Sequence record: NC_052653.1
Reading direction: 5' to 3' (one strand)
Source: Escherichia phage vB_vPM_PD06
Length of the DNA: 64,000 bases
Both the position numbers and the translations under genes were made by a program. Below are positions 2,380 through 47,127 of the stretch, piece by piece; position 1 is the stretch's first letter; the number at the start of each line of letters is the position of its first letter. Below the pieces are notes generated by a model that was not told the DNA's origin, did no database searches, and saw only the letters and a program-made list of their open reading frames with translations.

Positions 2380-3088
2380 TAAAGTGACGACTTTCGGAGA
2401 TCCTATCACCAATATTACAGAAAAAGATTTTGGGCGTGTAGCAACAGATAAAGATGGTGTCTTAAGAATTCGTGTACAAGGCATTACAGCACAGGATGAA
2501 TATGCTGTGTATGTTTCAGGTCTTAATTATATTGATGATCGCATTACACAAAACTTTGCACTGATCGGTGGTGTAGAGAAAATGTACTGGGAAGATGAAA
2601 TTGTAACAAGTTATCCAGCAGGTATCATTGAGGTACACGGTGATCTTTTAGCAGCAGCCGAGAGAGGCGATATAGACGCTATAGCACACTGCTGTAACTG
2701 TTTTTGCACTATGGGTAGTGGTATTGCACCAAAAATTAAAAGCAAGTGGCCTGGTGCGTTTAAAGCAGATTGTGCCACTAAGCGTGGTGATTATAAAAAA
2801 TTAGGTACGTTTACTAAGTATACAGAAAACAATTTGACAATTTATAATTTATATGGACAATATGGTTATAGTCGTCGTGAGGAAGGTAAGCGTGACCTGA
2901 ATTATGAAGCTATCTACAATGCGTTAGATAGTATGGGAGACGATGTTGTATCTTCAGGCGGTAAAATTGTAGGTTTACCAATGCTTGGTTGTGGTTTGGC
3001 TGGAGGTTCTTGGAATATTGTAAAACTTATGATCGAAGAAACTCTAGTGAACAAAGGTTTAAATGTAATTGTTTACAAACTGAAATAA
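2372..3088 (+). CDS. macrodomain protein (ADP-ribose binding/hydrolase family) with ~85 aa N-terminal extension
   Basis: Macro motifs AHCCNCFCTMGSGIAPKIKSKWP and GLPMLGCGLAGGSW. The ATG at 2372 overlaps the PRTase stop (ATGTCTAA). The track start at 2255 lies inside the PRTase gene. Confidence 0.8.
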   Translation: MSNKVTTFGDPITNITEKDFGRVATDKDGVLRIRVQGITAQDEYAVYVSGLNYIDDRITQNFALIGGVEKMYWEDEIVTSYPAGIIEVHGDLLAAAERGDIDAIAHCCNCFCTMGSGIAPKIKSKWPGAFKADCATKRGDYKKLGTFTKYTENNLTIYNLYGQYGYSRREEGKRDLNYEAIYNALDSMGDDVVSSGGKIVGLPMLGCGLAGGSWNIVKLMIEETLVNKGLNVIVYKLK

Positions 3089-3097
3089 GGAGAAAGT

Positions 3098-3304
3098 ATG
3101 GCAGGTGTTTTAGCAGTATTAGGTTGTTTTATTGTTGTATTCTTGATTGTGTTAATCCCTAGTTGGCTACTGCTTTTAGCATACAACTATATGATTGACA
3201 TTATCGGTTTAGACTGGCATCATGTTCCTGTAACGTTTTGGAGTGTAGTCTGTGTGACGTTCATTCTTGCGGTACTTCGTGGTATCTTTCAATCTAACAA
3301 ATAA
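3098..3304 (+). CDS. small membrane protein (2 predicted TM helices)
   Basis: Hydrophobic sequence MAGVLAVLGCFIVVFLIVLIPSWLLLLAY...VVCVTFILAVL. An AGGAGA RBS is present. Confidence 0.65.
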   Translation: MAGVLAVLGCFIVVFLIVLIPSWLLLLAYNYMIDIIGLDWHHVPVTFWSVVCVTFILAVLRGIFQSNK

Positions 3305-8282: not shown

Positions 8283-9077
8283 ATGTCCAATAAAATCAGT
8301 CTTAAAAAACGTCAAGAAACTCTTACTGTATCTCTGCGTAAGAAAAAGATTAACGATGTTGTTCTTCGTGTCGGTAGCGCCTTAGATATTTCGGGTAGTA
8401 TGTGTGAGCTGTATCGTGATGGCACTGTTAGTGATTTTGTAGGTAAACTGCTGCCGTTTGGTATGAAGTTTGATGACAATGCACAGATTGACATGTGGGC
8501 TTTCAATAGTTCTTCTTTTGAACTGCCTCCTGCAACGGCTGATGTGTATGATGATTATGTCGGCTCTTGCATGTCTAATGTTTGCATCAACGGTGGTACT
8601 GCTTATGCTCCAGTAATGCAAGAGATCTATGATACATACTTCGGTAGTGTACCTATGAAAAATATTACACGCGAAGTCGTTGAGTATGAAGAAGTCCCGG
8701 CTAAGGGTTTCCTTGCTAAACTAACTGGTAAAAAAGAACTTGTAGAAGTAACACGTACTATTGTAGAACAGGTTGTAGATACTGATGCACAAGTTGATCG
8801 TACTCCTGCAATGATTTTCTTCCAAACTGACGGGGAAAACATGGATACTTCAGCAGTACGTAGCTTACTGAACAAACACCGCAATACGCCTGTTTACTGG
8901 TTTATGGTTGGTGTAGGTAATGCAAACTTTAAATTCCTGAAAGACTTGGCAAAAGAGTACGATAATGTTGATTTTATCGGTATTGCAGATTTGTCCTTGT
9001 CTGATGAAGAACTTTACGATAAACTGTTATCCGAAGAGTTTGGTGAGTGGGTTAAAAAATTCGGAGCAAAAGCGTAA
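8283..9077 (+). CDS. von Willebrand factor A domain protein, TerF/TerY-type
   Basis: MIDAS motif DISGSM. The N-terminus ISLKKRQETLTVSL resembles TerD-family N-termini. A later FFQTDGEN block is present. Confidence 0.75.
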   Translation: MSNKISLKKRQETLTVSLRKKKINDVVLRVGSALDISGSMCELYRDGTVSDFVGKLLPFGMKFDDNAQIDMWAFNSSSFELPPATADVYDDYVGSCMSNVCINGGTAYAPVMQEIYDTYFGSVPMKNITREVVEYEEVPAKGFLAKLTGKKELVEVTRTIVEQVVDTDAQVDRTPAMIFFQTDGENMDTSAVRSLLNKHRNTPVYWFMVGVGNANFKFLKDLAKEYDNVDFIGIADLSLSDEELYDKLLSEEFGEWVKKFGAKA

Positions 9078-9084
9078 AAAACGC

Positions 9085-9112
9085 TTGACTTTGTAGAAAA
9101 GATTAGTAAAAT
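9085..9112 (+). promoter_or_regulatory. sigma70-like promoter TTGACT-16-TAAAAT
   Basis: TTGACT at 9085..9090 and TAAAAT at 9107..9112, in the 72 nt gap before terD. Confidence 0.55.
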
Positions 9113-9149
9113 AGACAACGTAAATTAACAACAAAGGAGATAATAAATT

Positions 9150-9746
9150 ATGACTCAGAAAATTTCCCTGAAAAAAGGTTCTAGCGAAAAAGTTTCTCTG
9201 AAAAAGATCGCACCAGCACTGAAACGCATTCGTCTGGAATTCTCTTGGAAATCTAACGAAAAACTGGATCTGGATGTTAGTGCTCTGATTTGCCGACACA
9301 ATGCATCTGGTCTGCCGGAACTGTTGTCTCCTCGTCACCTGGTGTGCTACGCGCAGAAATTTGATCCTGAACGTTCTACTTTTGCAGGTGAAGATGTTCG
9401 TGATGGTGTAGGACAGATGGAGCAGATTGATGTTACACTGGATAATATCTCTGCTGAAGCACAGGAAATTGCATTCGTAATTACTATTGATGACGAAACG
9501 GGTAAGAAACGCCTTGGTCACGCTACCGAAGGTTTCCTTAAAATCTTCGATGATGAACGTAATGTTGAACTGCTGGACTTTGACTTCTTGGCTCCAGAAC
9601 TTGCAGGTAACACCATTTGCCACGTTGCCTCCCTGGTGCGAGAAGATAGCGAATGGAAACTGAAAGCGTATGGTGTAGGTAAAGCTGGGCTTGACATTTA
9701 CGATGTAGTTAAAGCGTTTGGCGCTGGCGACGATTGGTTCGAGTAA
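9150..9746 (+). CDS. terD: TerD-family protein
   Basis: ISLKKGSSEKVSLKK..., LDLDVSALI, GEDVRDGVG..EQIDVTL and AFVITIDD match the TerD pattern. Codons are CTG-rich and host-like, unlike the neighbours. Confidence 0.85.
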   Translation: MTQKISLKKGSSEKVSLKKIAPALKRIRLEFSWKSNEKLDLDVSALICRHNASGLPELLSPRHLVCYAQKFDPERSTFAGEDVRDGVGQMEQIDVTLDNISAEAQEIAFVITIDDETGKKRLGHATEGFLKIFDDERNVELLDFDFLAPELAGNTICHVASLVREDSEWKLKAYGVGKAGLDIYDVVKAFGAGDDWFE

Positions 9747-9767
9747 TACGTCAAGTAATAAATCATA

Positions 9768-9790
9768 GCGCCCTTCGGGGCGCATATTTT
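9768..9790 (+). terminator. rho-independent terminator (TTCG tetraloop)
   Basis: gcgccc-ttcg-gggcgc followed by atatttta. Confidence 0.7.
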
Positions 9791-24654: not shown

Positions 24655-26539
24655 ATGTAACATTGACTGTAAATCTGACAAGAGGTGATAACACGTCATT
24701 ATCAGCATCATAATGTGCAACATCAAACACTGCTGTACCTGCTGCAAACCCGTATTGTTCAACCTGATCTGCATAAGTAAATGTGTAAGTGTTAGTATCA
24801 AGAGTTTGTTCTGTAAGAATTGCTGCTGTGAGGACGTTTACATTTCGGAAGTAATGTTTGGTATATCCTGCTGGTTCCCAAGAAATAATTGCATCTTGGT
24901 TAGCTTGTCTTACAGCGGCTCCTCCTGTTGGAACAGCCATATCAACCCAAACAGGTGACGTTGATGTTAGGTCTGTACCGTCTGCTGCTGATTTAGCAAG
25001 TTTTGTAGCTGCTGTCTGGTATATAGAAGAAATATAATGGATACGACCATCAATACCTTCTTCATAAACATAACCACTGTAGCGTTCAGCACCATCCACC
25101 CAAGAACCAATGATAACATCGTCACGTGCTGTAGAGATGGTTCTTTGTACATTTCTGTATTTCTGCCAATCCACACCATTAACTTCTACACCATATAGAT
25201 AAGAACGTCCTAGGATCTGCCAAACAATTTTTGCTTGAGAAGCAGGAACTATTGTACGCATCTTATCAAAGATAGCTATCGTAGCATCATGGTAACGTGT
25301 AGTGTTACTGTATCTACCTGCAACAGTCGAAGATGCTGATACAGCATCATTTTCACCTTGTCCCCAAATAATTGCTTTAACCTTACTTGCATAAGGTGTG
25401 ACTTTAGTGATAAAGTTAGTTAAGCATGGCCCGTCTGCTGTGTTATCCAGATCATACCAGTAGTTGTCTGGTGTACCTGTTCCGGCTTTATCATCTGCAT
25501 ATTTATCTGCTGCTGACGATCCAGAAGCTGCATTTAACGGAAGAACTTCAGCATTTGCTAAACCACGTTGCGTAGCATATGCATTACGGGTTGTTGTGCT
25601 ACTCATTGCTGCTTTATTTGCACCAGATAATTCTGTAAAGTGTGCATTTACGTTATCTTGTCCAGCAAAGACAATAACTTCTTTAATGAATGAATCATCT
25701 GTAGCTATTGAGTTATTAAAGATAACGGCTGCTGCTTTGGTGCTCTTAACGCTAATTTTAAGGTATGTTGGAGCAAACCCATAAAGAGGAATAGAGTCAG
25801 AGATATCAAAGTAGGCGTAAGTATTCGTGGTTGTTGTAGTCCACTGGACACTGTTATTACTTAAATCTAATACTTCTACAGTATAAGTATCACCATCTAG
25901 CGGATCAGCTACATCCCAAGCAACACGAATGTCTCCATAGCTGTTTGCCACGGCTGTTACATTAGAAATAACAGGAACAGCATTAACACCTAAATAAGAA
26001 CTATCAGAGGCCACCACTGTTCCTTGATAAGTTGCAGTGCAACCTATACGGCAACTGCCATCTTTAAGAGCAGTTATTAATCCTGTAGGACTTACAGTAG
26101 CTACTTCTGGATCTGTTGTGGTGTACGTAATTACCATATCTGGAAGGTCTTTAGCACCTTCTGGACTGATTGTAGCAACCAATTGTTGAGTAGTTCCTGC
26201 ATCCATAGCAGACAGACTTTCAGTGTACACACTTAATTCTGAAGCATAGCCACCAGATTGATCAGTTAAGACAGCACCTAAATTATTTTTAGCTGTCATT
26301 ATTGCATCAAAACCGCCTTCAGCAACAAACTCCATCATACCGTTATTATCTATAACCATTTTGGTATTATCTGAAGATGAAAAAGCTATATCAAATAACG
26401 CACCATCTTCTGGTGAAACTGTGTATGTCAGTTGCTTTTTACTACCAACTATTGCAATACCAATAGAGGAAGTGGTTATAGATGTAGCTGTTACTACTGA
26501 AGCTGATGTTGTTGACATAAATAAAGGAATAGGATACAT
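24653..26539 (-). CDS. tail-associated protein with Ig-like (Big_2), FN3-like and SASA/sialate-O-acetylesterase-like domains
   Basis: Big_2-like VATISPEGAKD...ATVSPTGLITALKDGSCRI. Esterase-like blocks VIVFAGQDNVN and IIWGQGENDA. AAGGAG RBS. Confidence 0.7.
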   Translation of the reverse strand: MYPIPLFMSTTSASVVTATSITTSSIGIAIVGSKKQLTYTVSPEDGALFDIAFSSSDNTKMVIDNNGMMEFVAEGGFDAIMTAKNNLGAVLTDQSGGYASELSVYTESLSAMDAGTTQQLVATISPEGAKDLPDMVITYTTTDPEVATVSPTGLITALKDGSCRIGCTATYQGTVVASDSSYLGVNAVPVISNVTAVANSYGDIRVAWDVADPLDGDTYTVEVLDLSNNSVQWTTTTTNTYAYFDISDSIPLYGFAPTYLKISVKSTKAAAVIFNNSIATDDSFIKEVIVFAGQDNVNAHFTELSGANKAAMSSTTTRNAYATQRGLANAEVLPLNAASGSSAADKYADDKAGTGTPDNYWYDLDNTADGPCLTNFITKVTPYASKVKAIIWGQGENDAVSASSTVAGRYSNTTRYHDATIAIFDKMRTIVPASQAKIVWQILGRSYLYGVEVNGVDWQKYRNVQRTISTARDDVIIGSWVDGAERYSGYVYEEGIDGRIHYISSIYQTAATKLAKSAADGTDLTSTSPVWVDMAVPTGGAAVRQANQDAIISWEPAGYTKHYFRNVNVLTAAILTEQTLDTNTYTFTYADQVEQYGFAAGTAVFDVAHYDADNDVLSPLVRFTVNVT

Positions 26540-26578: not shown

Positions 26579-28549
26579 TTATGTGCGTTTAGCAACAATA
26601 GCATCCACGTAATCGCCAACACCACAATATGTTAGTTGTAGTATTGTTACTCCGTTAGGATCTGTATTAATATCACTGGAACCAATTACTTTGTAAGATG
26701 GATCTAAAGTAACAGTACGACCTCCAGTGGCATCTTGGATAAGATAAACTATTGCAGAGAATGGTTTAGGTTTTGTACTATCTTCGACACCAGGCCATGC
26801 TTTTATAGTAGCGTTACCAGTAAGATTCAACACATTCATGTTATGTGTTCCTGGAGGTGTCCAGTCCCCTGTAACAGAATTGTTGGTATATGCTGTAACC
26901 TCTATAAAATTAGTTGTTACTTTTGTTGGAACTATATCTTGACCATCTACAGAATTAGTGAGTTCTTCCCATGCCCCATCTTTACGAGCATAAGTCTTAC
27001 CATCACTAGGTGCATCTGTGATACTAGGTAGTGTACCTTGAGAAGTCCAGACAGTTGCAGATGTTTTTAAGAACACCTCGCCAGTGGAGATATTAAAGGC
27101 ATAATCACCTTGTTTACCATCACTAGAGATTGGATCTGTTGTTTTAACAATCCAAGTTGCACCGTCTGTACCGTTAGTACCAGCGTCACCTTTCTCACCT
27201 TTTTCACCCTTATCACCTTTCAAACTACCCATATCTACATATTCAGCAGTTTGAGTTTGTTCATTATAGGTGTAAATGTAAAGATGACCTGTATCTTCCG
27301 TCAGATAAGCATCACCGTAATTGGCTGTAGGAGGAAGCGCACTTGCAGACGCAACGTGTCCTTTTGCAGTGATTGGAGTACCAGCTAAACGACCAACATT
27401 TGTCCACTCTGTGGCTCCTTGCAACCAGACCCAAAGTTCATTATTGATCAGATAACCATCACCCTCTTCTCCAGTTTGTGGTAGTTCAGAAGTGTTAGTC
27501 AGAATGTCAATAATGGTCAACCCTGCACCAGTTGGCCCCGTCAAGCCTTGTATACCCTGTGCACCTTGATCACCCTTGTCTCCCTTATCACCTTTTTCTC
27601 CTTTCAGAGAGGCAATATATTCGTCAATAGTACCAACGTTACCAGCATTTAACCAGACTTGATAAGCTGAATCACCAGTGTTACCCTTATCACCTTTGTC
27701 GCCTTTATCTCCTTTTGGCCCCACTATAGCACCCATATTGATCCATTCTACACCGTTTGACACGTATAGATATGTACCAACACTCCATGCTTGAGATGTG
27801 TTTCCATGAGATGCAGAAGGAAGATCTGAAACGGAATTAGCTGCGCCTTGGTAATCAAAACCATTAGCATTATTACCTGGCACACCTTGTGGCCCCTCTG
27901 GGCCAGGCTCCCCTTTATCACCTTTAATTGAAGCAAGATAATCTAGTTCTGTACCTTCATTTCCTGCTGCAAGCCATACTTCATAAGCAGATTTACCTTC
28001 TGGCCCCTGTGAGTTTACTTTTCTCCAAGCAGTACCATCCCAAGCATACATATTCTCGCCTACAATCCATGCATCCCCTGCATTGTTTCCACTTGTAGGT
28101 AATTGGTTGGTATTAGATAGTGTCCCTAATAGCTTTAATGGAGCACCTGGATCACCTTTTAAAGAAGCCAACCACTGTGTCTCAGTACCTTGGAAACCAT
28201 TGTCTACGGCAATCTGGTAAGCTGATTTACCAGCTTCTGGGATGGATTCTCTAAGATCTTCAATTTCAGCTTCAATAGCATCTAATTCTGATTCTATTTG
28301 AGCAATGTCATCTGCATTACCCACATTTTTCCAAGCTGTATCTGAAATCCCTCCAGTAGATGTAGGAGTAGAGTTAGCAGGTACAACTTTAGGTAGAGAA
28401 CCTTTCCACTGATAGTAGTTACCGTCAGCTTCAAAGAGCAATGCTTCACGAGCATCTCTTAAGGTAAAACCACTTGCAAAACTTCTACGCTTTCTATAGC
28501 GAGACTCTACCATGTCTGCAATGGCACTATTTGGACGTGTTAAAATCAC
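26579..28549 (-). CDS. collagen-like repeat tail fibre, GTG start
   Basis: G-X-Y tracts (GDKGEPGPEGPQGVPG, GPKGDKGDKGDKGNTGD, GEKGDKGDKGDQGAQGIQGLTGPTGAG, GDKGEKGEKGDAGTNGTDG) alternate with SAYQ...ASLKG modules. Confidence 0.85.
   Translation of the reverse strand: MILTRPNSAIADMVESRYRKRRSFASGFTLRDAREALLFEADGNYYQWKGSLPKVVPANSTPTSTGGISDTAWKNVGNADDIAQIESELDAIEAEIEDLRESIPEAGKSAYQIAVDNGFQGTETQWLASLKGDPGAPLKLLGTLSNTNQLPTSGNNAGDAWIVGENMYAWDGTAWRKVNSQGPEGKSAYEVWLAAGNEGTELDYLASIKGDKGEPGPEGPQGVPGNNANGFDYQGAANSVSDLPSASHGNTSQAWSVGTYLYVSNGVEWINMGAIVGPKGDKGDKGDKGNTGDSAYQVWLNAGNVGTIDEYIASLKGEKGDKGDKGDQGAQGIQGLTGPTGAGLTIIDILTNTSELPQTGEEGDGYLINNELWVWLQGATEWTNVGRLAGTPITAKGHVASASALPPTANYGDAYLTEDTGHLYIYTYNEQTQTAEYVDMGSLKGDKGEKGEKGDAGTNGTDGATWIVKTTDPISSDGKQGDYAFNISTGEVFLKTSATVWTSQGTLPSITDAPSDGKTYARKDGAWEELTNSVDGQDIVPTKVTTNFIEVTAYTNNSVTGDWTPPGTHNMNVLNLTGNATIKAWPGVEDSTKPKPFSAIVYLIQDATGGRTVTLDPSYKVIGSSDINTDPNGVTILQLTYCGVGDYVDAIVAKRT
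27140..28228 (-). repeat. internal coding repeats of the fibre gene (about four units)
   Basis: A repeated unit of collagen tract, then (K/D)SAY(Q/E)(I/V)...Y(L/I)ASLKG, then LP..G..W.V....Y.W.G..W..VG, seen four times (the last partial). Confidence 0.7.
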
Positions 28550-32912: not shown

Positions 32913-33542
32913 TTATTCTATTTGAGCTATCAGCATAGTCATTCGCCCTGTATCATCTCCTTCAGCCTCTGTGTAAAGAGAACCTAAACCACCTATACCA
33001 TGAGGTGGATTTGTGGCATAATAGGAAGTGAAACCAAAGGCTGAACCCGCTTTCGCACCTAAGCGATAACTACTTAGGATCGGGAAAACGTTAAGTAACT
33101 GTGCTACTGCCTGATCGGATTGTAGACACAAATTATAAAAGAATACGTCGAATGTTTTATTTAATCCAACGTATGTATTAATCGTTTCTTTTTCTGTTCC
33201 TGTAAAACGAGCGAACATATCAATGATATCATCTCGCGTACCAGAAGACGCAACACGATAAGCCCTGATTTTTAATATTGTACGATACTCTTCATCTGTA
33301 GCACCATTTCTTTCCATCCCCATTTCTTCACCAATAAGATCTAAATACTTACCAGTTGCAGTAGAGATTAAGCGGTGTTTGGCAAGATAGATCATTGCCT
33401 GATCTATCTTTTGTTTTTCGCTAGAAATGATATAGAGTAGTTTGACAATGTTCGGAGAAGATTTAAAATCTTCAATCAGTAGGTCTTTAACATCTTCATT
33501 GATACTATCCCACGTTGTCACATGGTCAACACTCACTGCCAT
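32913..33542 (-). CDS. baseplate wedge protein (gpI/DUF2612-like)
   Basis: Lies directly downstream of the J-like gene. The N-terminal pattern resembles DUF2612-type baseplate proteins. Assignment is tentative. Confidence 0.55.
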   Translation of the reverse strand: MAVSVDHVTTWDSINEDVKDLLIEDFKSSPNIVKLLYIISSEKQKIDQAMIYLAKHRLISTATGKYLDLIGEEMGMERNGATDEEYRTILKIRAYRVASSGTRDDIIDMFARFTGTEKETINTYVGLNKTFDVFFYNLCLQSDQAVAQLLNVFPILSSYRLGAKAGSAFGFTSYYATNPPHGIGGLGSLYTEAEGDDTGRMTMLIAQIE

Positions 33543-35032: not shown

Positions 35033-35277
35033 TAATTATCCTCCTTATCAGGGGCAGGTGATCTGCCCCAACGTAAATCTATTAAATTCTTCATTAGTCT
35101 GGATGGTGTGATCATAAAAACAAAAGCCCAGCCCATCCATTCAGGAATTTCTTTATCAATTCCCAAATAAATAAACATACTGGACATAACAATCATACCA
35201 ATAGCATTCCAAACTTTAGTAGAACTGACTTTATTATCAGGATATGTACAAAACATACCTATTAAAAATTTTCTCAT
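35032..35277 (-). CDS. small membrane protein (81 aa, 2 hydrophobic segments, charged C-terminus)
   Basis: VWNAIGMIVMSSMFIYLGI and WMGWAFVFMITP, with a C-terminal RWGRSPAPDKEDN. The start overlaps the upstream stop (ATGA). Confidence 0.6.
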   Translation of the reverse strand: MRKFLIGMFCTYPDNKVSSTKVWNAIGMIVMSSMFIYLGIDKEIPEWMGWAFVFMITPSRLMKNLIDLRWGRSPAPDKEDN

Positions 35278-35582
35278 GGTGCGTTCTCATTACTTTTTAA
35301 ATCACGATATACAGCTAATTCCCCAAGGTCTACAGAACCCGCTGAATGCACAAGTACAGCAGCACTAAGACTAATGGCAGTAGTACCTGGGGCAATATCA
35401 GCAGGTAGGGAATACGCCCTTTGCGTCTCCTTATCATAGATAACCTTATACCCACCCAAATCCACACCAACTGAGAAGTAAACAACCTCAGATTGTTTAA
35501 CTCCAAAGTGACGGGCTACTGCTTGTTTATTGGTTAAGATTCCGGTTGAACCTTTACCACCTTGGGAGAACATTTCGTTCAT
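35274..35582 (-). CDS. hypothetical protein (102 aa)
   Basis: AAGAGG RBS. MNEMFSQGGKGSTGILTNKQAVARHFGV... looks familiar from the N-termini of tail proteins, but I cannot place it. Confidence 0.6.
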   Translation of the reverse strand: MNEMFSQGGKGSTGILTNKQAVARHFGVKQSEVVYFSVGVDLGGYKVIYDKETQRAYSLPADIAPGTTAISLSAAVLVHSAGSVDLGELAVYRDLKSNENAP

Positions 35583-35829
35583 AACAACCTCTTTGTTTTT
35601 CTAAGTAAGCCCCTCTTTGGAGGGGCTTGCAGTGGTAGTGACAACACTTTGAGTTAGTACGATAGTAACTAAAGACAAGATTAACCCTGCTACGATATGT
35701 TTTCATCATTTTATCACATGGCGATGACATGCGCTTGCAGGACATAGTTTGTATGGGTTGTGCGGAATGCCATTTTTGGCCTCTTGTCATCAATAAGTAA
35801 GTATTCATTTCCCCCGCCGAAGCGGGGTT

Positions 35830-37947
35830 TTATATTAAACCATACACTACATTGTGTATTGTTAAACTGCCAATCGAGTTCCCAACATTAAAATTCACCT
35901 CAGCCTTGTATGCTCCTTGAGGGACTGAATCCACTAAAGCATAAAAATTGAATGTGTCGCCTACTGGGATGTTATACCCTATGGAATCCGCAACAGCATT
36001 TCCTTGCTGGTCCAGGAATCTAATTGACGCCAGGGTTGTTGTTAGATTTTTAGCCCAAAAACCAAGCTGAAAATAACGACCAGGCTCACAATCAATGATT
36101 GTTTGGGTGAAATTAGCTGCTGCCTCAGCTGATGGTACAGATAAAACAAAAGAAGTTGAAAACATTAAATCATTAGGAACATCGTTTGCTGTAGTAGCAG
36201 TGACAACTCCTGTTCCAGTTTGCGATAGTGTCCAGTTAGATGTGTTTAAAAACTGTCCTGAGCCATTACTGATGCTATTAATATAAGGGCTTACAATGCT
36301 CCCTAAATTCCAGTTACTTGTGATAAATCCTGCCCGTGGATAGCACCCTCTGGACATTACTTTTTTGCTCGCGCCACCTATCAACTGTCTTGTGGGAAAT
36401 CCAGTAGCAATCGTTGTATTCCCATAGAGGGATAACGAGCAATTATTTAGGCTAACAACCCCATCGCCGTTGCTAACAATAGGTACACTGGTATACCCGT
36501 CTGGGAGTAGTATCGTCGAATTACTGACGGTTAATCGTGAACTGCCCTCCACAGTAAACCCAACGAAACTCTGACCAGGTTGGTACTCAATGTTACCGTT
36601 TGTGAAAACCACTGTTGCGTTATCGGATAGCGCAACAGCAGGGTCAAAATATCCTGATTTTTTACCTGCTGGCAGAGAGCAGCCATCGAATATAAATTGA
36701 CCATTAACAAATGTGAAAGGTCCACCGTTGTCAACCATCCAACAATGATTAAATCTTATAACTTCACCGGAATTTGCTGGTGAATTGAAAATAACAGAAT
36801 TTGTAAAACTTCTGGACAACGCACATTTATCAAAAAGAATACGATATGCATTATCAAGAAACTCAATCCCGGCAGTTGAGATAAACCCACTATTAGAGAT
36901 TCTTAACTCTGATACTTCACCACTGGTAGAACCACCGATAGCCAATTTCCTGGAACCTTTCCCGACGAATGACACACCACTAATCAAAGAAGTTGCGTTA
37001 ATTGCATCTCTGTTAGTGTAATCAGCGCCTGTATTAATGATGGTTAGGTAGTAGTCACCGGTTACAGATGAAGATTCTGTTAAAGTACATTTATTTTTTC
37101 CAATAAGTGCGCCTTTTGCTATGTCGAAAATAATTGGTGTTGTTATCTCTCCTGAAACAGGGACTACACAGTCAAACCCGGCAGCGTTTATTGTGTTGAT
37201 GAATACCGCCAAATCTTCGGTTCCAGTATAACCAGCATCATACACATCCACGGAACCATTGAAGAATTTTCTTTTCCATACCACACCGTTTCCGGGGAAG
37301 GTAACAATATTGTCTATAGCTGTATCCGCGCTAACAGCTACCATAATACCACCACCAAAGTTAAAACCGCTCACATACGAATCAAGTATTATGGAATCAC
37401 CAATTGATCCTGATATTGATGATAACTCAGAAACTGATGATGCAGTTCCTATATAAGACAAGCCATTTGTTTTATTTAAATCACCCCTCAGGGTGGCATC
37501 ACCAACACTAGCCCACGCACTAGGACCAACACCACCGGTTGATGTAGGGGTTGAGTCAGCGGGAACAGCTTTAGGGAAAGCACCACCCCATGTATAGCAC
37601 TGTCCACCTGCAATATACCAAACAGCATCAGTATTATTATTTAATGTAGCACCATCCTCAAAGCTACCATCAACAAGTGTTAACCCCGCTTCAGCAAGAC
37701 TACGACGCCACTGTTCACGATCATTAAGAAGATTGTTATTCAACTCTTCCTGAACAGTATTACCATTTGAGGATTGTATTAAATCTGCTCCATCTGTATC
37801 TTTCAACTGGGTGGCTAAAACCACCCCAGTGTCAGTAAGAAAATTAGAAACTGTGCTTTTAACGGTCTTATCAGGTTGGTCTAAAACTAGGTAATCAGAA
37901 CCATTAACTTTTGATGTTTCCGGTAAATTAGTAATTGTAGTTGACAT
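35830..37947 (-). CDS. tailspike / depolymerase (beta-helix-like), GC-richer than its neighbours
   Basis: The N-terminal anchor MSTTITNLPETSKVNGSDYLVLDQ is shared with the 43000..43473 product. The module YTWGGAFPKAVPADSTPTSTGGVGPSAW is shared with the collagen fibre. Long Gly/Ser/Asn-rich body. Confidence 0.75.
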   Translation of the reverse strand: MSTTITNLPETSKVNGSDYLVLDQPDKTVKSTVSNFLTDTGVVLATQLKDTDGADLIQSSNGNTVQEELNNNLLNDREQWRRSLAEAGLTLVDGSFEDGATLNNNTDAVWYIAGGQCYTWGGAFPKAVPADSTPTSTGGVGPSAWASVGDATLRGDLNKTNGLSYIGTASSVSELSSISGSIGDSIILDSYVSGFNFGGGIMVAVSADTAIDNIVTFPGNGVVWKRKFFNGSVDVYDAGYTGTEDLAVFINTINAAGFDCVVPVSGEITTPIIFDIAKGALIGKNKCTLTESSSVTGDYYLTIINTGADYTNRDAINATSLISGVSFVGKGSRKLAIGGSTSGEVSELRISNSGFISTAGIEFLDNAYRILFDKCALSRSFTNSVIFNSPANSGEVIRFNHCWMVDNGGPFTFVNGQFIFDGCSLPAGKKSGYFDPAVALSDNATVVFTNGNIEYQPGQSFVGFTVEGSSRLTVSNSTILLPDGYTSVPIVSNGDGVVSLNNCSLSLYGNTTIATGFPTRQLIGGASKKVMSRGCYPRAGFITSNWNLGSIVSPYINSISNGSGQFLNTSNWTLSQTGTGVVTATTANDVPNDLMFSTSFVLSVPSAEAAANFTQTIIDCEPGRYFQLGFWAKNLTTTLASIRFLDQQGNAVADSIGYNIPVGDTFNFYALVDSVPQGAYKAEVNFNVGNSIGSLTIHNVVYGLI

Positions 37948-37955
37948 TTTTACTC

Positions 37956-40115
37956 CTATATATAAAATTTTTGTGTTGTTACTAAATCTTCTCCAGATTT
38001 AGTGGCTAATGTAATTCCACTTATAGTGGCAATCTCAACATTTACCTGTTTAAGAGTGATATCTTGCAAGTAGCAATTCAAAGGCACATTACCCATATAA
38101 AACACTTGGGATTTTGAATTAAGAACAGTTATTGAATCATGCATTATTTGTGGGTAAGCCCATATGTATTGATATAAACCAACAAACTTCTGATCATTCA
38201 ATACAATATTACCTATAATCATTTTCCACAAATATGTTCTGTAGTCTGATTCAGGATCAAAGCCATATAATGGTGCTAGAGTTGCGTCTGGAACAAACCC
38301 TGCAAGATAATGTATCTTATCATAACTAAAACCTAGTTGCTCATTAGGTATTTTGATAGCGTCGAAAGATCTTTCCATCTGACCTTCCAACAACCAGTCA
38401 TAACATTCTGAACAATAAAAGTCAAAGTTTTCTGGGATATAATAATCTTTAGGGAAGTTAACAAACTCCATCATACCGTTACCTAAAATGGATGGCACAA
38501 ATGGTAATAATGTAACTTTAGCTCCAGGATAGGCTAATTTAGTATCTGTTGCAAATTTAGCAACACGCAGTCCTAATGTTTTAGATAGGAATGCATAATA
38601 TTCATCATATGGTGTACCAGTTTTATAATTCTTAACTGTACCAACATCTTGTGCATATAATCCAGTTTCATTATTAAATGCAACTTTGGTTGCATAATCA
38701 TAAATACACGGGAGATTGGTAGCTGTGTTATACCACCACCACGGTTCACCAACCTGAATAATAACAGGAAGATCATTGGCAGCGGATATAGAAGCTATCT
38801 TATTTATTACACCTTGTAAATAATTCATCCCTTCATCAATTGAAGGAGATAAAACATAACTTGGTGGCTCATAACCTGTAGCAGCCAGATCATCATTCCA
38901 AGTATGTTGTACCCATTCTACAGGACACACTGTACTCATAAGTTCAAAACTTAAGGAGTTCATTACTGTGTAGCCCATAGCTTTTGCATTAGCGTGGAAA
39001 TTATCAAACCAGGCTTCTGTTGCTGGGTTTAAATATTCTGTTCTATTCAAAGCCCATTTATTAGATCCAGCATCCCAACTAAATTGATAATAGTGTGACA
39101 TACCATTATAATGGTTAATCATATCTCTATAACCTAATCTATAGGTGTTAGAAATAACTCGCTCTGGGGTTAGGTTATACATATCATCATAAGATGTACA
39201 CATTCTTATGGTGTGTGCTGGAACATTTAAATTACCCATATTCATCATACTATAACCCGTATCAGGTTCCAGTATGGTAAACTTAAAGGAAAGATCCTCA
39301 TTGTCTACAGGAATAATATCTTCAATTTCTTGATACCTTGTGGAGATCAAGGAGAAGAACATATTATCTATCTGTGTAGTGTCAACAACAATATCATTTT
39401 CTGGCCCAGATTTTAAATTTGAGAAATCTAATTTTATTGTTGCTGTTTTACCATCCTCTGAAACTTCTTCTGCATAAAAGTTTAGAGATACATAATGAAC
39501 TGTTTCATCCTTCAGTGTCACTGTTAAGGATGGCAATAATTTTTCTTCTTTTAATCCAGGAACACCTTGACTAAGTTCCATTTTAAACCAAAGTTTCTCT
39601 TTACTTAAGTCAGAATGTTCTTGGTAGCCTAATCCTTTGTGATCATATTTATCGTAAGTTGACCAAATAATCCCAGCAAGACCAGCCACTGTCCTATTAA
39701 CCATTCTTGCTGTGAAAGAATCACCATTAGAGATAATAGAACAACTTTCTGTTGCTTGAGAATCTATTGTCCAAAACTTAGGATCAAACATTCTAGACTT
39801 CACAACAGGCCAAGTTAGCGGGGTTGTATTCGATTGATTAGTCGTAATAACACAACGAATTTCTTCATTGATCATCATGTTATTTTGACTTATGCTAGTA
39901 ATCTCAAGAGTAAAATAAAGATCTAAAGAGTTTGCCGGACGTTCATATACATCAACCACCACAGTAGCAGAATCTGCATCAGAAGGGAACGTTACTGTTC
40001 CCTGTTTAGCTACATAATCTCTACCAGCGACCGCCGTTCCATCGACGGTCTTATAGCTGAATGAACTGGCATTTACTCTCGTATTTCGAGTTACAGTAAA
40101 AATAGCCTGTTTCAT
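37956..40115 (-). CDS. tail-associated protein with N-terminal Calx-beta-like domain and a large uncharacterised C-terminal domain
   Basis: FSYKTVDGTAVAGRDYVAKQGTVTFPSDADSATVVVDV matches the Calx-beta pattern. 719 aa, located in the RBP block. Confidence 0.6.
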   Translation of the reverse strand: MKQAIFTVTRNTRVNASSFSYKTVDGTAVAGRDYVAKQGTVTFPSDADSATVVVDVYERPANSLDLYFTLEITSISQNNMMINEEIRCVITTNQSNTTPLTWPVVKSRMFDPKFWTIDSQATESCSIISNGDSFTARMVNRTVAGLAGIIWSTYDKYDHKGLGYQEHSDLSKEKLWFKMELSQGVPGLKEEKLLPSLTVTLKDETVHYVSLNFYAEEVSEDGKTATIKLDFSNLKSGPENDIVVDTTQIDNMFFSLISTRYQEIEDIIPVDNEDLSFKFTILEPDTGYSMMNMGNLNVPAHTIRMCTSYDDMYNLTPERVISNTYRLGYRDMINHYNGMSHYYQFSWDAGSNKWALNRTEYLNPATEAWFDNFHANAKAMGYTVMNSLSFELMSTVCPVEWVQHTWNDDLAATGYEPPSYVLSPSIDEGMNYLQGVINKIASISAANDLPVIIQVGEPWWWYNTATNLPCIYDYATKVAFNNETGLYAQDVGTVKNYKTGTPYDEYYAFLSKTLGLRVAKFATDTKLAYPGAKVTLLPFVPSILGNGMMEFVNFPKDYYIPENFDFYCSECYDWLLEGQMERSFDAIKIPNEQLGFSYDKIHYLAGFVPDATLAPLYGFDPESDYRTYLWKMIIGNIVLNDQKFVGLYQYIWAYPQIMHDSITVLNSKSQVFYMGNVPLNCYLQDITLKQVNVEIATISGITLATKSGEDLVTTQKFYI

Positions 40116-46301: not shown

Positions 46302-47012
46302 TTATTTTTTACCATCTGCACTGTGATCACTAAGATGTTCTGTACCAGTTGCTTTCCCTGTTCTTGCATCCAAATCAGCATCTGGACTAGTACCTTTCTT
46401 GTTTTTAACACCTGTATTCTTATTTGGTTTTGTCTTAAGTGCAATAGCATTTGTTTCCCCGTAGGAAACTAATCTTACTTGTTCAAATTCCAAGTCAAAT
46501 TGCATTGCATATTCTGTTTGATATTCATATGATATGCCTTTCAAAATAACATTCTCATACACCTTATGTTCTGTTATTAAAATGATAGGCTGTCTTTCAT
46601 CAAATATTTTATCTAAGTAAGTAATTGCTTGACTGATACGAGTACCGTTAACACCAGCACTATATAGCATATCTCGCATCAATCTCACAGGTGTCTCTGT
46701 AATCATTCCTGATAAAGAGAAAGTATTATTTTTAACTTGAACGTGATCAGATACGTTAGCTCCATTTTCTACAGGATAACTAGTTACATCTGCTTGACGT
46801 TTTACACCGATATTTGGAACAGCATCAAAAACTATAGCTTGGTAGTTTTGAATATATTGATCACTTGCACTATTGTAAACGCTTGCTAAAATACAAAAAC
46901 CATTCTCCCCTTTCACAGTAGAGGCAGAGTTATTTGTGTTTTTTGTAGAGTTTATATCTTGTTCCGCTTTATAAACCGCTTGAACGTGTTGTTCTGGAGT
47001 GTTTGCTGCCAT
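46302..47012 (-). CDS. tail protein downstream of the tape measure (236 aa)
   Basis: ORF track. First gene after the promoter at 47060..47089. Confidence 0.6.
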   Translation of the reverse strand: MAANTPEQHVQAVYKAEQDINSTKNTNNSASTVKGENGFCILASVYNSASDQYIQNYQAIVFDAVPNIGVKRQADVTSYPVENGANVSDHVQVKNNTFSLSGMITETPVRLMRDMLYSAGVNGTRISQAITYLDKIFDERQPIILITEHKVYENVILKGISYEYQTEYAMQFDLEFEQVRLVSYGETNAIALKTKPNKNTGVKNKKGTSPDADLDARTGKATGTEHLSDHSADGKK

Positions 47013-47030
47013 ATAATTTTACCTCTTAAT

Positions 47031-47057
47031 GTGATAAGAAACATTCTCCCTTATCAC
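47031..47057 (-). promoter_or_regulatory. inverted repeat GTGATAAG-N11-CTTATCAC at the transcription start region
   Basis: Perfect 8 bp arms at 47031..47038 and 47050..47057. A third direct GTGATAA copy overlaps the -10 element. Confidence 0.45.
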
Positions 47058-47059
47058 TC

Positions 47060-47089
47060 ATTTTATCACGAAAAACAACTCTTTGTCAA
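47060..47089 (-). promoter_or_regulatory. extended -10 promoter TTGACA-18-TGaTAAAAT
   Basis: On the - strand, TTGACA at 47089..47084 and TAAAAT at 47065..47060, preceded by tga. Confidence 0.6.
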
Positions 47090-47092
47090 GAC

Positions 47093-47120
47093 AAATAAAA
47101 AGCCCCGCCGAAGCGAGGCT
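47093..47120 (-). terminator. rho-independent terminator after the tape measure gene
   Basis: The - strand reads agcctcgc-ttcg-gcggggct (one mismatch) followed by ttttatttg. Confidence 0.65.
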
Positions 47121-47127
47121 TTATGCA

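Follow-up and report, generated by a model that had tools for sequence, protein, structure and literature searches.

Layout of the locus and origin of the tailspike

The window that we analysed, a stretch of 64,000 nucleotides from Escherichia phage vB_vPM_PD06 (NC_052653.1), belongs to a phi92-like Justusliebigvirus, and the region under study is 99.8% identical to phage PD114, the sole phage-collection record containing most of the query. Here a tailspike ORF of 705 amino acids (35830..37947, minus strand), in the position of phi92 gp143, is separated from a free-standing ORF of 102 amino acids (35274..35582, minus) by a non-coding spacer of 247 nt (35583..35829). An earlier note on this DNA had described the spacer as the only long gap in the virion arm: the gap is real and the description suits the tail-fibre and baseplate module, but shorter true gaps exist, for example at 47013..47127. 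Other apparent gaps in the arm are mostly coding, with GTG or TTG starts. A tRNA scan found no tRNA, and an Rfam scan returned no family at gathering score (best, rseX with 22.4 of the 50 bits needed and Trp_leader with 19.8 of 41). An 84-aa ATG ORF drawn across the gap (35554..35808) was set aside as an artefact, with no family hits and a frame broken by indels in relatives.

The spike itself is a mosaic, in which a genus-type N-terminal anchor (aa 1–119; 37591..37947, minus) is fused to a receptor-binding and enzymatic module (aa 120–705; 35830..37590, minus) homologous to TSP4 of phage CBA120, an enzyme that cleaves the O78 antigen (Pas et al., 2023; PMC10408124). The match to PDB 5w6h_A scores 1124.9 bits and aligns aa 91–705 of the spike with residues 85–697 of the chain, phrog_4217 is matched at E = 3e-264, and the DNA of the module is 84–94% identical to spikes of siphoviruses, Kuttervirus and N4-like phages (~86% to Kuttervirus TSP4, 94.4% to siphovirus PJ16, 84–85% to ASO78B and phiHAO78-1). 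Relatives of the spike come from the O78-infecting phages ASO78B, AVIO78A and phiHAO78-1, and together with the TSP4 report they predict O78 O-antigen specificity. Compared with CBA120 TSP4 (orf213), the O78-specific component of the Kuttervirus branched RBP complex, the gene differs at both ends: the N-terminal attachment part is the Justusliebigvirus anchor, and the last 17 codons and 3′ flank are of siphovirus (ASO78B / phiHAO78-1) rather than Kuttervirus type, with homology to these siphoviruses running past the stop codon into the first hairpin of the spacer. These data indicate that the receptor-binding part is a horizontally exchanged host-range module, and the homology search thus bears out the earlier proposal of an imported spike.

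Upstream of ~37500–37800, identity to other Stephanstirmvirinae returns. A putative left crossover zone (37497..37726, minus) encodes the Pfam domain Tail_spike_N (PF18668, 65.7 bits; aa 93–150) in DNA conserved across phage families: over 37526..37716 G7C is 74% and U1G 78.5% identical, and homology to phiHAO78-1 reaches 37726. This zone probably corresponds to motifs one and two of the modular RBP exchange described by Pas et al. (2023; PMC10408124).

Base composition and codon usage both deviate mildly. The spike has 40.8% GC (anchor 37.8%, receptor-binding part 41.4%) against 38.0% for the window, a modest rise where 2.1-kb windows vary with a standard deviation of 1.8% and 7.6% of equal-sized windows are equally or more GC-rich. 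It is GC-richer, as had been claimed, but does not lie in the mid to high 40s: its highest 400-nt window reaches 44.5%, and much of the contrast with the neighbouring gene (37956..40115) arises because that neighbour is unusually low in GC, at 34.9%. Codon-usage distance is 0.21, as compared to 0.12–0.18 for the other long virion genes. Within the spike, GC3 steps from 23.5% in the backbone-like anchor to 32.0% in the receptor-binding part.

Composition of the spacer and its borders

Hairpin A (35812..35827, minus) begins 2 nt after the spike stop codon and reads CCCCGC-UUCG-GCGGGG in the sense RNA (CCCCGC-CGAA-GCGGGG on the plus strand), with a stem of −13.6 kcal/mol. The sense strand continues GAAAUGAAUAC, so that the GC stem of an intrinsic terminator is present in this direction and the U-tract is absent, and the T-run (TTTTATATTA) lies on the plus strand only; folding and sequence agree here with what had been noticed by eye. 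G7C has two copies of the identical 16-mer, one behind gp66 and one behind gp63.1, and the hairpin is also found, with up to 1 mismatch, in KKE7M, U1G, Ro121c4, ASO78B and the IMG/VR locus L033. The annotation of ASO78B, where it lies between convergent genes, marks it as a terminator for both strands, and the plus-strand T-run here matches this bidirectional terminator of the siphovirus relatives. Hairpin B (35607..35628, minus) likewise lies where it had been described, upstream of the next ribosome-binding site: it has a 9-bp stem (AAGCCCCUC-CAAA-GAGGGGCUU; −16.5 kcal/mol, z = −4.1), is of Kuttervirus type (SS9 subtype) and is followed by UUACUUAG, its U-tract degraded to UUACUU. In P3322 and EcG1 its loop is inverted to TTTG. 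Motif three of Pas et al. (2023; Virol J 20:174; PMC10408124) is a ~20-nt predicted terminator downstream of RBP genes, and the hairpin just past the RBP stop codon has been proposed as a recombination hotspot. Hairpin A is such a conserved ~20-nt motif, directly 3′ of an RBP gene and shared across genera, and by their sequences we identify both hairpins as motif three.

Beyond hairpin B, a Shine-Dalgarno sequence AAAGAGG (35588..35594, minus) sits in a conserved junction, AGAAAAACAAAGAGG(N5)ATG, which recurs in G7C, Kuttervirus SS9, KKE7M and others; in G7C, SS9, KKE7M, KMB37 and contig L025, one motif-three hairpin plus AGAAAAACAAAGAGG forms the entire 47–50-nt junction. The ORF that follows is the N-terminal head domain of CBA120 TSP1 and G7C gp63.1 (its aa 1–94 align with PDB 4oj5 aa 1–95, E = 4e-49; 4qnl is matched over aa 1–94). 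A full tailspike of this type has a head and a beta-helix body; the ORF holds the head only, ending at aa 102 and overlapping the start of the next gene. Its DNA is 98–100% identical between genera, as compared to 60–85% for neighbouring genes, and it lies in an island of near-identity (35240..35740; 98–100% between genera that otherwise differ by 15–40%). Four relatives carry an internal deletion of ~157 nt in this ORF. We interpret the head-domain ORF as the right-hand homology arm of an exchange site.

Between the hairpins, the spacer is made up of pieces with different relatives. A 137-nt block (35693..35829) is homologous to DNA upstream of myovirus wedge genes in IMG/VR (loci L034, L033 and L037), its stretch from 35693 to 35811 (minus) corresponding to the tailspike-to-wedge intergenic region of BUCT618-like myoviruses. 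By identity profile, this stretch varies in its left part (35756..35811) and is near-invariant in its right part. The block ends in an extended −10 element, TGaTAAAAT (35708..35716, minus), which combines TG, one nucleotide and a −10 hexamer keeping A2 and T6; the predicted start is near 35701, and homology stops ~8 nt beyond it. There is no usable −35 hexamer at 16–18 nt, a feature that the class does not require (the best, CTGCAA, lies 21 nt upstream and is too far), and a consensus promoter scan listed no promoter at the site. BUCT618-like myoviruses conserve TGnTAAAAT, together with its flanks, 23 nt upstream of their baseplate-wedge gene: in BUCT618, L035 and L036, TGATATAAT is placed exactly 23 nt from the ATG of the wedge gene, and L037 retains TGgTAAAAT despite a diverged spacer, with 16 of the 23 first aligned bases from TG identical to these three when compared by eye rather than by alignment search.

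In the 64 kb of the window TGnTAAAAT is rare (six copies on the minus strand, two of them intergenic), and one other copy lies inside an evident promoter at 47060. The earlier note had drawn on the element common to both places. A 12-mer, GTGATAAAATGA, is indeed present at 35706..35717 and at 47058..47069 (both minus), the latter within a good promoter, TTGACA-18-TAAAAT, downstream of a terminator; but when 247-nt segments are drawn at random, 97% of them have one or more 12-mers in common with the remainder of the window, and we rejected this sharing as evidence since it is expected by chance. Literature searches on this topic, judged by title and abstract, brought up no transcript data for Stephanstirmvirinae.

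The adjoining 64-nt leader segment (35629..35692, minus) occurs only in the 16 phage-collection records carrying the core of the spacer and in one Logan contig (L024); its similarity to N4-like gp63/gp62 and to BUCT618-like wedge genes is not significant. Tests of 35629..35697 as what is left of the 5′ end of a BUCT618-like wedge gene gave no significant alignment (p = 0.08–0.8), and the core, tested as a decayed remnant of the gp63-gp62 (holin) region of Gamaleyavirus, had a local alignment score of 10 where shuffles averaged 11 (p = 0.77). Truncated gp63-like genes lie just upstream of the core in ZCKP1, EcG1, DIJ07P2 and the metagenomic contig L022.

A 108-nt segment (35626..35733, minus) lies between 7-nt direct repeats, CTGCAAG (35740..35734 and 35632..35626). 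The metagenomic L022, L026 and L031 have lost it, which joins CTATGTCCTGCAAG to CCCCTCCAAAGAGGGGC and removes the −10 element; the contigs L022 and L026 are near genome-length, at 149 and 144 kb. Because the proximal part runs straight on from the first CTGCAAG repeat in BUCT618-like phages, we regard the short form in L022 as a microhomology deletion. A MITE-like insertion with a 7-bp target duplication was rejected, as the segment has neither terminal inverted repeats nor copies elsewhere, and its distal part is absent from the E. coli genomes, IMG/VR and JGI metagenomes searched.

Comparison with relatives also bears on the suggestion that the imported cassette had brought its own boundary. 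Homology does continue through the stop codon into hairpin A, the only end of the spacer shared with donor-type relatives of the spike; but 35583..35755 is 96–100% identical in ~11 relatives with other spikes and in podovirus U1G, so most of the spacer was not brought by the present spike. Identity to Phapecoctavirus relatives shifts sharply at ~35755. At least seven different fillers occupy the site in relatives, one of them the 108-nt deletion, and several include truncated N4 gp63-like genes, that is, Gamaleyavirus flank. Close relatives have a junction of 48–49 nt and no promoter; in KKE7M and KMB37 (98% identical to the window in flanking genes) it measures only 48 nt.

Proposed exchange mechanism and alternative readings

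The locus is a horizontally acquired O78-type tailspike module with a spacer of flank pieces from earlier donors, and a clear case of a known process rather than a new kind of element. More specifically, we favour, at a probability of about 0.6, a tailspike exchange site with a donor-flank spacer and a probable promoter. The spike would be a chimera of a Justusliebigvirus anchor and an imported TSP4-type (O78-type) receptor-binding module, with crossovers where DNA is conserved between phage families. The left crossover would fall in the stretch coding for Tail_spike_N, and the right one in the motif-three hairpin, the ribosome-binding site of the junction and the start of the gene beginning MNEMFSQGG. 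Imports overshooting on the right side would let the spacer accumulate the downstream flanks of earlier donors: firstly, hairpin A with its antisense T-run, matching the convergent bidirectional terminator of O78-spike siphoviruses; secondly, the 137-nt block, whose end would be the BUCT618-like wedge-gene promoter; thirdly, the 64-nt leader segment; then the second hairpin and ribosome-binding site, of Kuttervirus/G7C type, and finally the head domain of a TSP1/gp63.1-type spike minus the rest of that spike. One cultured genome without the spike and two metagenomic ones suggest that transfer ran from BUCT618-like phages to Stephanstirmvirinae. With its C(UUCG)G loop and no sense U-tract, hairpin A would act as a probable 3′ stabiliser or leaky terminator of the spike message. 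The extended −10 (start near 35701) probably fires with host sigma-70, and this second, non-essential start would serve the head-domain ORF, a membrane-protein gene and the baseplate-wedge operon through a leader of ~115 nt that includes hairpin B.

A secondary promoter restarting baseplate transcription, as the earlier note proposed, is thus plausible, given the conservation of the element before BUCT618-like wedge genes, but dispensable: any promoter activity is not needed, because both the relatives with 48–49-nt junctions and the natural 108-nt deletion lack it. The same deletion and short junctions would suit a spacer that is a pure recombination scar, with a silent −10 match and baseplate genes expressed by read-through from the spike gene. 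We consider this possible though less probable. The missing −35 element fits it, as do the lack of a sense U-tract in hairpin A, which makes read-through likely, and the tendency of the site to collect non-functional fragments (truncated gp63-like genes, a fused 147-aa ORF); yet all 12 carriers keep the extended −10 whole, bar a G for T at −15 in U1G, its orthologue is a promoter-like element that BUCT618-like phages keep at a constant distance ahead of their wedge genes, and TGnTAAAAT promoters are able to work even where a −35 element is missing. That the core is nearly identical among carriers reflects its recent spread and is therefore silent on selection, and the extended −10 could be inert cargo. 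It is a tentative and rather doubtful idea that the spike gene, hairpin A and the promoter block form a portable host-range cassette, which would enter tail modules as unrelated as those of BUCT618-like small myoviruses, 150-kb Stephanstirmvirinae and an N4-like podovirus, and restore the recipient's downstream baseplate transcription; the head-domain gene would then serve as a landing pad rather than as a protein, and this shared role would account for the near-identity of the TSP1 head-domain gene across genera.

We find very little room for an antisense small RNA read from the plus strand of the spacer and ending at the plus-oriented terminator (35812..35835), which the earlier note had raised. 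The plus-strand hairpin is followed by a T-run, the plus-strand fold of the gap has z = −3.8 and there is a weak promoter-like site at 35638..35666 (9/12 match); however, the T-run overlaps the last codons and stop codon of the spike, and siphovirus relatives with O78 spikes are arranged alike, their hairpin serving also as the terminator of a convergent SSB gene. Ancestry and the last codons of the spike therefore explain the T-run, and no antisense RNA is called for. Moreover, U1G has the same spacer with a T-run on neither side, the two GC hairpins account for the fold z-score, promoter-like matches number 28 against 29 expected from shuffles, leaving no convincing plus-strand promoter, and the Rfam scores given above (22 and 20 bits when rounded) fall well short of gathering. 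A structured RNA supported by covariation was also rejected, since the copies are too alike and the only changes of U1G in the stem of the central imperfect palindrome are, by eye, not compensatory. It is just as hard to credit that the spacer encodes one or two very small proteins, namely a 19-aa ORF (MAFRTTHTNYVLQAHVIAM; 35772..35713, preceded by AAGAGG-N6-ATG) and/or a hydrophobic peptide whose reading would start at 35678 (TTG) or involve a frameshift at an A4 run. The 19-aa ORF has a good Shine-Dalgarno sequence in the window, is open in 8 of 12 sequences (a set including L032, L033 and L037) with a GTG start in EcG1, and ends in a stop codon adjoining ATGATG, resembling translational coupling, and the frame-1 peptide KHIVAGLILSLVTIVL looks like a membrane segment. 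Against this, the frame shows neither conserved openness nor synonymous excess: 3 synonymous stand against 20 non-synonymous codon variants in the 12 sequences, variable sites number 5, 11 and 8 (each of 18) by codon position, the second being the most variable, Ro121c4, P3322 and UP17 have lost the ATG, and EF1-1 has a broken frame. A by-eye p of ~0.03 for selection had leaned on a doubtful EF1-1 alignment and was discarded in favour of these 12 clean sequences. The hydrophobic peptide (25 to 35 aa) was rejected as well: its frame has no ATG in 12 of 12 copies, although the A4 run is kept in all. Neither candidate has PHROG or Pfam matches or homologues beyond the same 16 records. Spacers of this kind are not to be taken as signs of small-RNA or small-protein genes.

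Relation to known systems

The locus adds detail to the published model of modular RBP exchange and overturns nothing. It resembles the cases of Pas et al. (2023; PMC10408124) in its genus-specific anchor, swappable receptor-binding part and conserved hairpin just past the RBP stop codon, in an O78 subtype common to Kuttervirus, Kagunavirus, Gamaleyavirus and Justusliebigvirus, and in a hairpin A identical to the G7C copies. It differs in that two motif-three hairpins of different subtypes flank ~183 nt of extra DNA and in that the sense U-tract of hairpin A has been lost; that work describes neither the spacer nor the promoter fragment nor the free-standing head-domain gene. These phages change host serotype mainly by swapping tailspikes, a process that underlies serotype prediction and engineered host ranges. 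This locus shows the positions at which crossovers would fall, and it suggests that imports carry pieces of the donor's downstream flank (terminators, a promoter, truncated genes) that accumulate at the junction. The near-identical head-domain gene and the motif-three hairpins would offer natural homology arms for engineering spikes into phi92-like phages.

The right-hand side follows the junctions between G7C gp66 and gp63.1 and between Kuttervirus tailspikes, in which a stop codon, a GC hairpin and (U)n-AGAAAAACAAAGAGG precede ATGAACGAAATGTTCTC. There the downstream gene is a full-length spike, whereas here it ends after the 102-aa head domain and a single junction has been split by inserted DNA.

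Morons, described in lambdoid phages by Hendrix and colleagues, are intergenic insertions with their own promoter and terminator. The spacer is similar in placing foreign DNA, with a terminator hairpin and a sigma-70-type promoter, between two backbone genes; unlike a moron, it has no cargo gene between terminator and promoter, runs in the order terminator to promoter, and is a boundary element behind an imported gene rather than a self-contained unit. Phage T4 carries C(UUCG)G hairpins between cistrons, reportedly described by Tuerk and colleagues in 1988. Hairpin A is like them in being a very stable UUCG tetraloop hairpin directly 3′ of a structural gene and without a U-tract, and it is by this analogy that hairpin A may contribute to mRNA stability.

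A chimeric tailspike

Over 35200..38000, the window shares 99.8% identity with Escherichia phage vB_vPM_PD114, a Justusliebigvirus (phi92-like) of the subfamily Stephanstirmvirinae. Genes of the virion arm around the spike lie on the minus strand, and the 705-aa tailspike ORF (35830..37947) sits where phi92 has gp143, named fibre I in a recent cryo-EM paper and located there upstream of the gp145-gp146 wedge (PMC13450770). The positions given in the earlier note for the ORFs, the 247-nt gap beyond the spike (35583..35829) and its pair of hairpins are correct, as are those of GTGATAAAATGA, which occurs twice. An 84-aa ATG ORF across the gap was rejected, as it has no family hits and its frame is broken by indels in relatives.

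Comparison across phage families revealed that the spike is a chimera. Residues 91-705 align to the crystallised chain of CBA120 TSP4 with 1125 bits; TSP4 cleaves the O78 antigen (PMC10408124). In DNA comparisons, Kuttervirus TSP4 genes are ~86% identical to 35884..37590, siphovirus PJ16 reaches 94.4% over 35884..37483, the O78 phages ASO78B and phiHAO78-1 reach 84-85% over a similar stretch that extends through the stop codon, and the N4-like PhAPEC5 and PhAPEC7 are ~80% identical over part of this region; within the phage collection, most of the query is present in PD114 only. Upstream of ~37500-37800, a stretch that encodes Pfam Tail_spike_N and is matched by G7C and U1G too, identity to other Stephanstirmvirinae returns. 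This is the same pattern of an anchor with a swappable receptor-binding part described by Pas et al. 2023 (PMC10408124), whose scheme explicitly covers the O78 subtype and Justusliebigvirus. The cross-family homology thus bears out the suggestion that the spike module was imported.

The spike is indeed GC-richer, at 40.8% as compared to 38.0% for the window and 34.9% for its unusually AT-rich neighbour gene, but the size of the excess had been overstated: 7.6% of equal-sized windows have a GC content at least as high, and the maximum of any 400-nt window is 44.5%. Within the spike, GC3 steps from a backbone-like 23.5% in the anchor (aa 1-119) to 32.0% in the remainder, which resembles the 30-35% of the siphovirus homologues.

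A spacer assembled from donor flanks

Positions 35583..35755 of the spacer are 96-100% identical in U1G, an N4-like podovirus, and in ~11 Stephanstirmvirinae whose spikes differ. Most of the spacer is therefore older than the present spike, and the proposal that the spike brought its own boundary holds for part of it only. Against Phapecoctavirus genomes, the baseplate genes are 60-85% identical, whereas the head-domain gene and right spacer (~35240..35740) are 98-100% identical; for the left spacer (35756..35829), identity is 86-90% with Ro121c4 and P3322 and ~42-72% with other carriers. Recombination thus has a breakpoint close to 35755, and the near-identical island has spread between genera recently. 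In U1G, a Gamaleyavirus (locus L005, 3700..4272), the spacer core and a 107-aa head-domain fragment are 94-100% identical to the myovirus copies over 35531..35730, which shows that Schitoviridae and Stephanstirmvirinae have exchanged DNA recently.

Relatives carry at least seven fillers in the interval from the spike stop codon to the junction RBS: the bare junction (48-49 nt), one of 146 nt, one of 208-214 nt containing a different small GC-rich ORF, the window type (232-249 nt), one of 580 nt and one of 655 nt, a pair of small genes in nieznany, and a fused 147-aa ORF in EcG1. A truncated homologue of N4/G7C gp63 lies within the filler of ZCKP1, DIJ07P2, EcG1 and L022, and gp63 of Gamaleyaviruses lies just downstream of the spike genes, which shows that imports reach past the spike into the DNA that follows it in the donor. 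The truncated homologues (phrog_5211) in Phapecoctavirus genomes span 2785..2943 in ZCKP1 (L012) and 2682..3125 in EcG1 (L018), with another in the L022 gap; the gp63 of Gamaleyaviruses neighbours the holin gene. The annotated 147-aa 'hypothetical protein' of EcG1 arose through a 26-nt deletion that joins the gp63 fragment to the spacer. Three Logan/ENA contigs (L023, L029 and L030; gap 2787..3000) hold a different insert, an AT-rich hairpin and a GC-rich ~48-aa ORF (MLRQSDIAAAFRESILRSSKG..., translated by eye) that is preceded by GGGAGGG and runs into hairpin A.

The entire junction measures only 47-50 nt in G7C, Kuttervirus SS9, KKE7M, KMB37 and the metagenomic locus L025, running from the spike stop codon to the start of the next gene (ATGAACGAAATGTTCTC..., encoding MNEMFSQGG...) and comprising one GC hairpin, a short U-run and AGAAAAACAAAGAGG. 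The sequence of hairpin A (35812..35827, 2 nt past the spike stop), CCCCGCTTCGGCGGGG, is found in the junctions of G7C and KKE7M, and the Kuttervirus hairpin, GCCCCTC...GAGGGGC, is of the type of hairpin B (35607..35628, upstream of the RBS AAAGAGG). Pas et al. (PMC10408124) named the junction hairpin motif three; they predict it to be a terminator and propose it as a hotspot of recombination. Unlike these short junctions, the window holds both hairpin types, spaced 183 nt. P3322 (L017) and EcG1 have the loop of hairpin B in reverse complement (TTTG in place of CAAA) on an unaltered stem, the signature of template switching or inversion within the palindrome. Elsewhere, 47013..47127 (minus strand) forms a textbook boundary, a stop codon followed by a AGCCUCGC-UUCG-GCGGGGCU hairpin with UUUUUAUUU, its core differing from hairpin A at 1 of 16 bases; TTGACA-18-TGaTAAAAT follows, upstream of the gene at 46302..47012 (minus strand).

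The free-standing 102-aa ORF at 35274..35582 (minus strand) matches aa 1-95 of CBA120 TSP1 (4oj5) and then ends; it also matches aa 1-94 of G7C gp63.1 (4qnl). Between Justusliebigvirus and Phapecoctavirus, DNA identity is 98-100% for this ORF as compared to 60-85% for neighbouring genes, and four relatives (KMB37, UP17, DIJ07P2 and W22) carry a ~157-nt internal deletion in it. The phi92 structure paper nowhere mentions gp144 (PMC13450770). We infer that this head-domain gene hitch-hiked here as the beginning of a spike that once lay downstream, and now serves mainly as a right-hand homology arm.

Origin and dispensability of the promoter-like block

The earlier note's observation is largely correct, save for its GC figures and the weight it placed on a 12-mer common to the spacer and the rest of the window. 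Such sharing carries no statistical weight, since it is seen in 97% of random 247-nt segments. The -10 element itself (TGaTAAAAT, 35708..35716, minus strand) is of the extended -10 class, without a -35 element, and TGnTAAAAT is rare, with 6 occurrences on the minus strand of the 64 kb.

An exact-pattern scan of IMG/VR returned two contigs, and a later scan with the neighbouring wedge protein returned more (L032 and L034 are the same contig). L034 and L033 share the order tailspike gene, hairpin A, homologue of 35693..35811, and GGGGG-N-ATG of a baseplate-wedge gene in phrog_6, the family of the window's 495-aa gene; their homology to the window ends at ATCG, ~8 nt beyond the predicted transcription start (~35701). 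L037 has the block and lacks hairpin A; there TGgTAAAAT and the surrounding 24 nt are nearly unaltered, and 6 of 15 positions in the adjacent spacer differ (by eye). L035, L036 and the cultured relative BUCT618 have no spike upstream of the wedge gene, where their sequence is unrelated, and carry TGATATAAT 23 nt from the wedge-gene ATG, the same distance as the L037 motif; 16 of the 23 first aligned bases from TG are identical to L037 at a fixed offset (by eye). By these comparisons, the window's -10 element and the promoter region of the wedge gene in BUCT618-like myoviruses are orthologous, and the element most likely came in with an earlier spike import, as its downstream flank.

In L022, L026 and L031, 35733..35626 (108 nt) is missing exactly between two CTGCAAG repeats. 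The proximal sequence of BUCT618-like phages is contiguous with the first repeat, so the short form arose by microhomology deletion. This deletion takes out the -10 element; KKE7M and KMB37 have junctions of 48 nt, and both findings together show that read-through from the spike gene suffices. The secondary promoter proposed for the spacer is thus plausible from its sequence and ancestry yet dispensable; promoter activity, if any, is extra. The elements of spacer and spike are of known kinds, and the exchange mechanism is already published; new here are the connection with BUCT618-like phages and the anatomy of the spacer, in which donor flanks are stacked.

Hairpin A and other window features

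Homology to ASO78B and phiHAO78-1 crosses the spike's last codons and stop, and stops at hairpin A; in ASO78B, where an SSB gene converges on the spike gene, the hairpin separates the two and is an annotated terminator on both strands. The plus-strand T-run, earlier read as a possible sign of an antisense small RNA, overlaps the spike's last codons (GLI-stop) and recurs in both siphoviruses, and U1G, which shares the spacer, has a T-run on neither side; no antisense RNA need therefore be invoked. The sense RNA of hairpin A has a C(UUCG)G loop without a U-tract. An Rfam scan returned nothing near threshold, and the sole plus-strand promoter-like site is weak, which speaks further against such an RNA. 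Elsewhere, 33442..33469 and 37941..37968 (plus strand) carry TTGACA-16-TAAAAT, 11/12 near-consensus sigma-70 matches lying antisense at gene boundaries of the minus-strand operon; promoter-like sites overall are no more numerous than in shuffles.

Two further repeats concern fibre genes: 9-nt periodic repeats (…CACCTTT…) at 27152..27925, in the gene at 26579..28513 (minus strand), are compatible with collagen-like Gly-X-Y in a fibre protein, and AACAAACTCCATCATACCGTTA, an exact 22-nt repeat (26324..26345 and 38460..38481), is common to two different fibre/RBP genes. Inside the plus-strand arm, a 252-aa ORF (9027..9785, minus strand; GC3 56.5%) is probably not a real gene but shadows a plus-strand gene that starts at a codon other than ATG.
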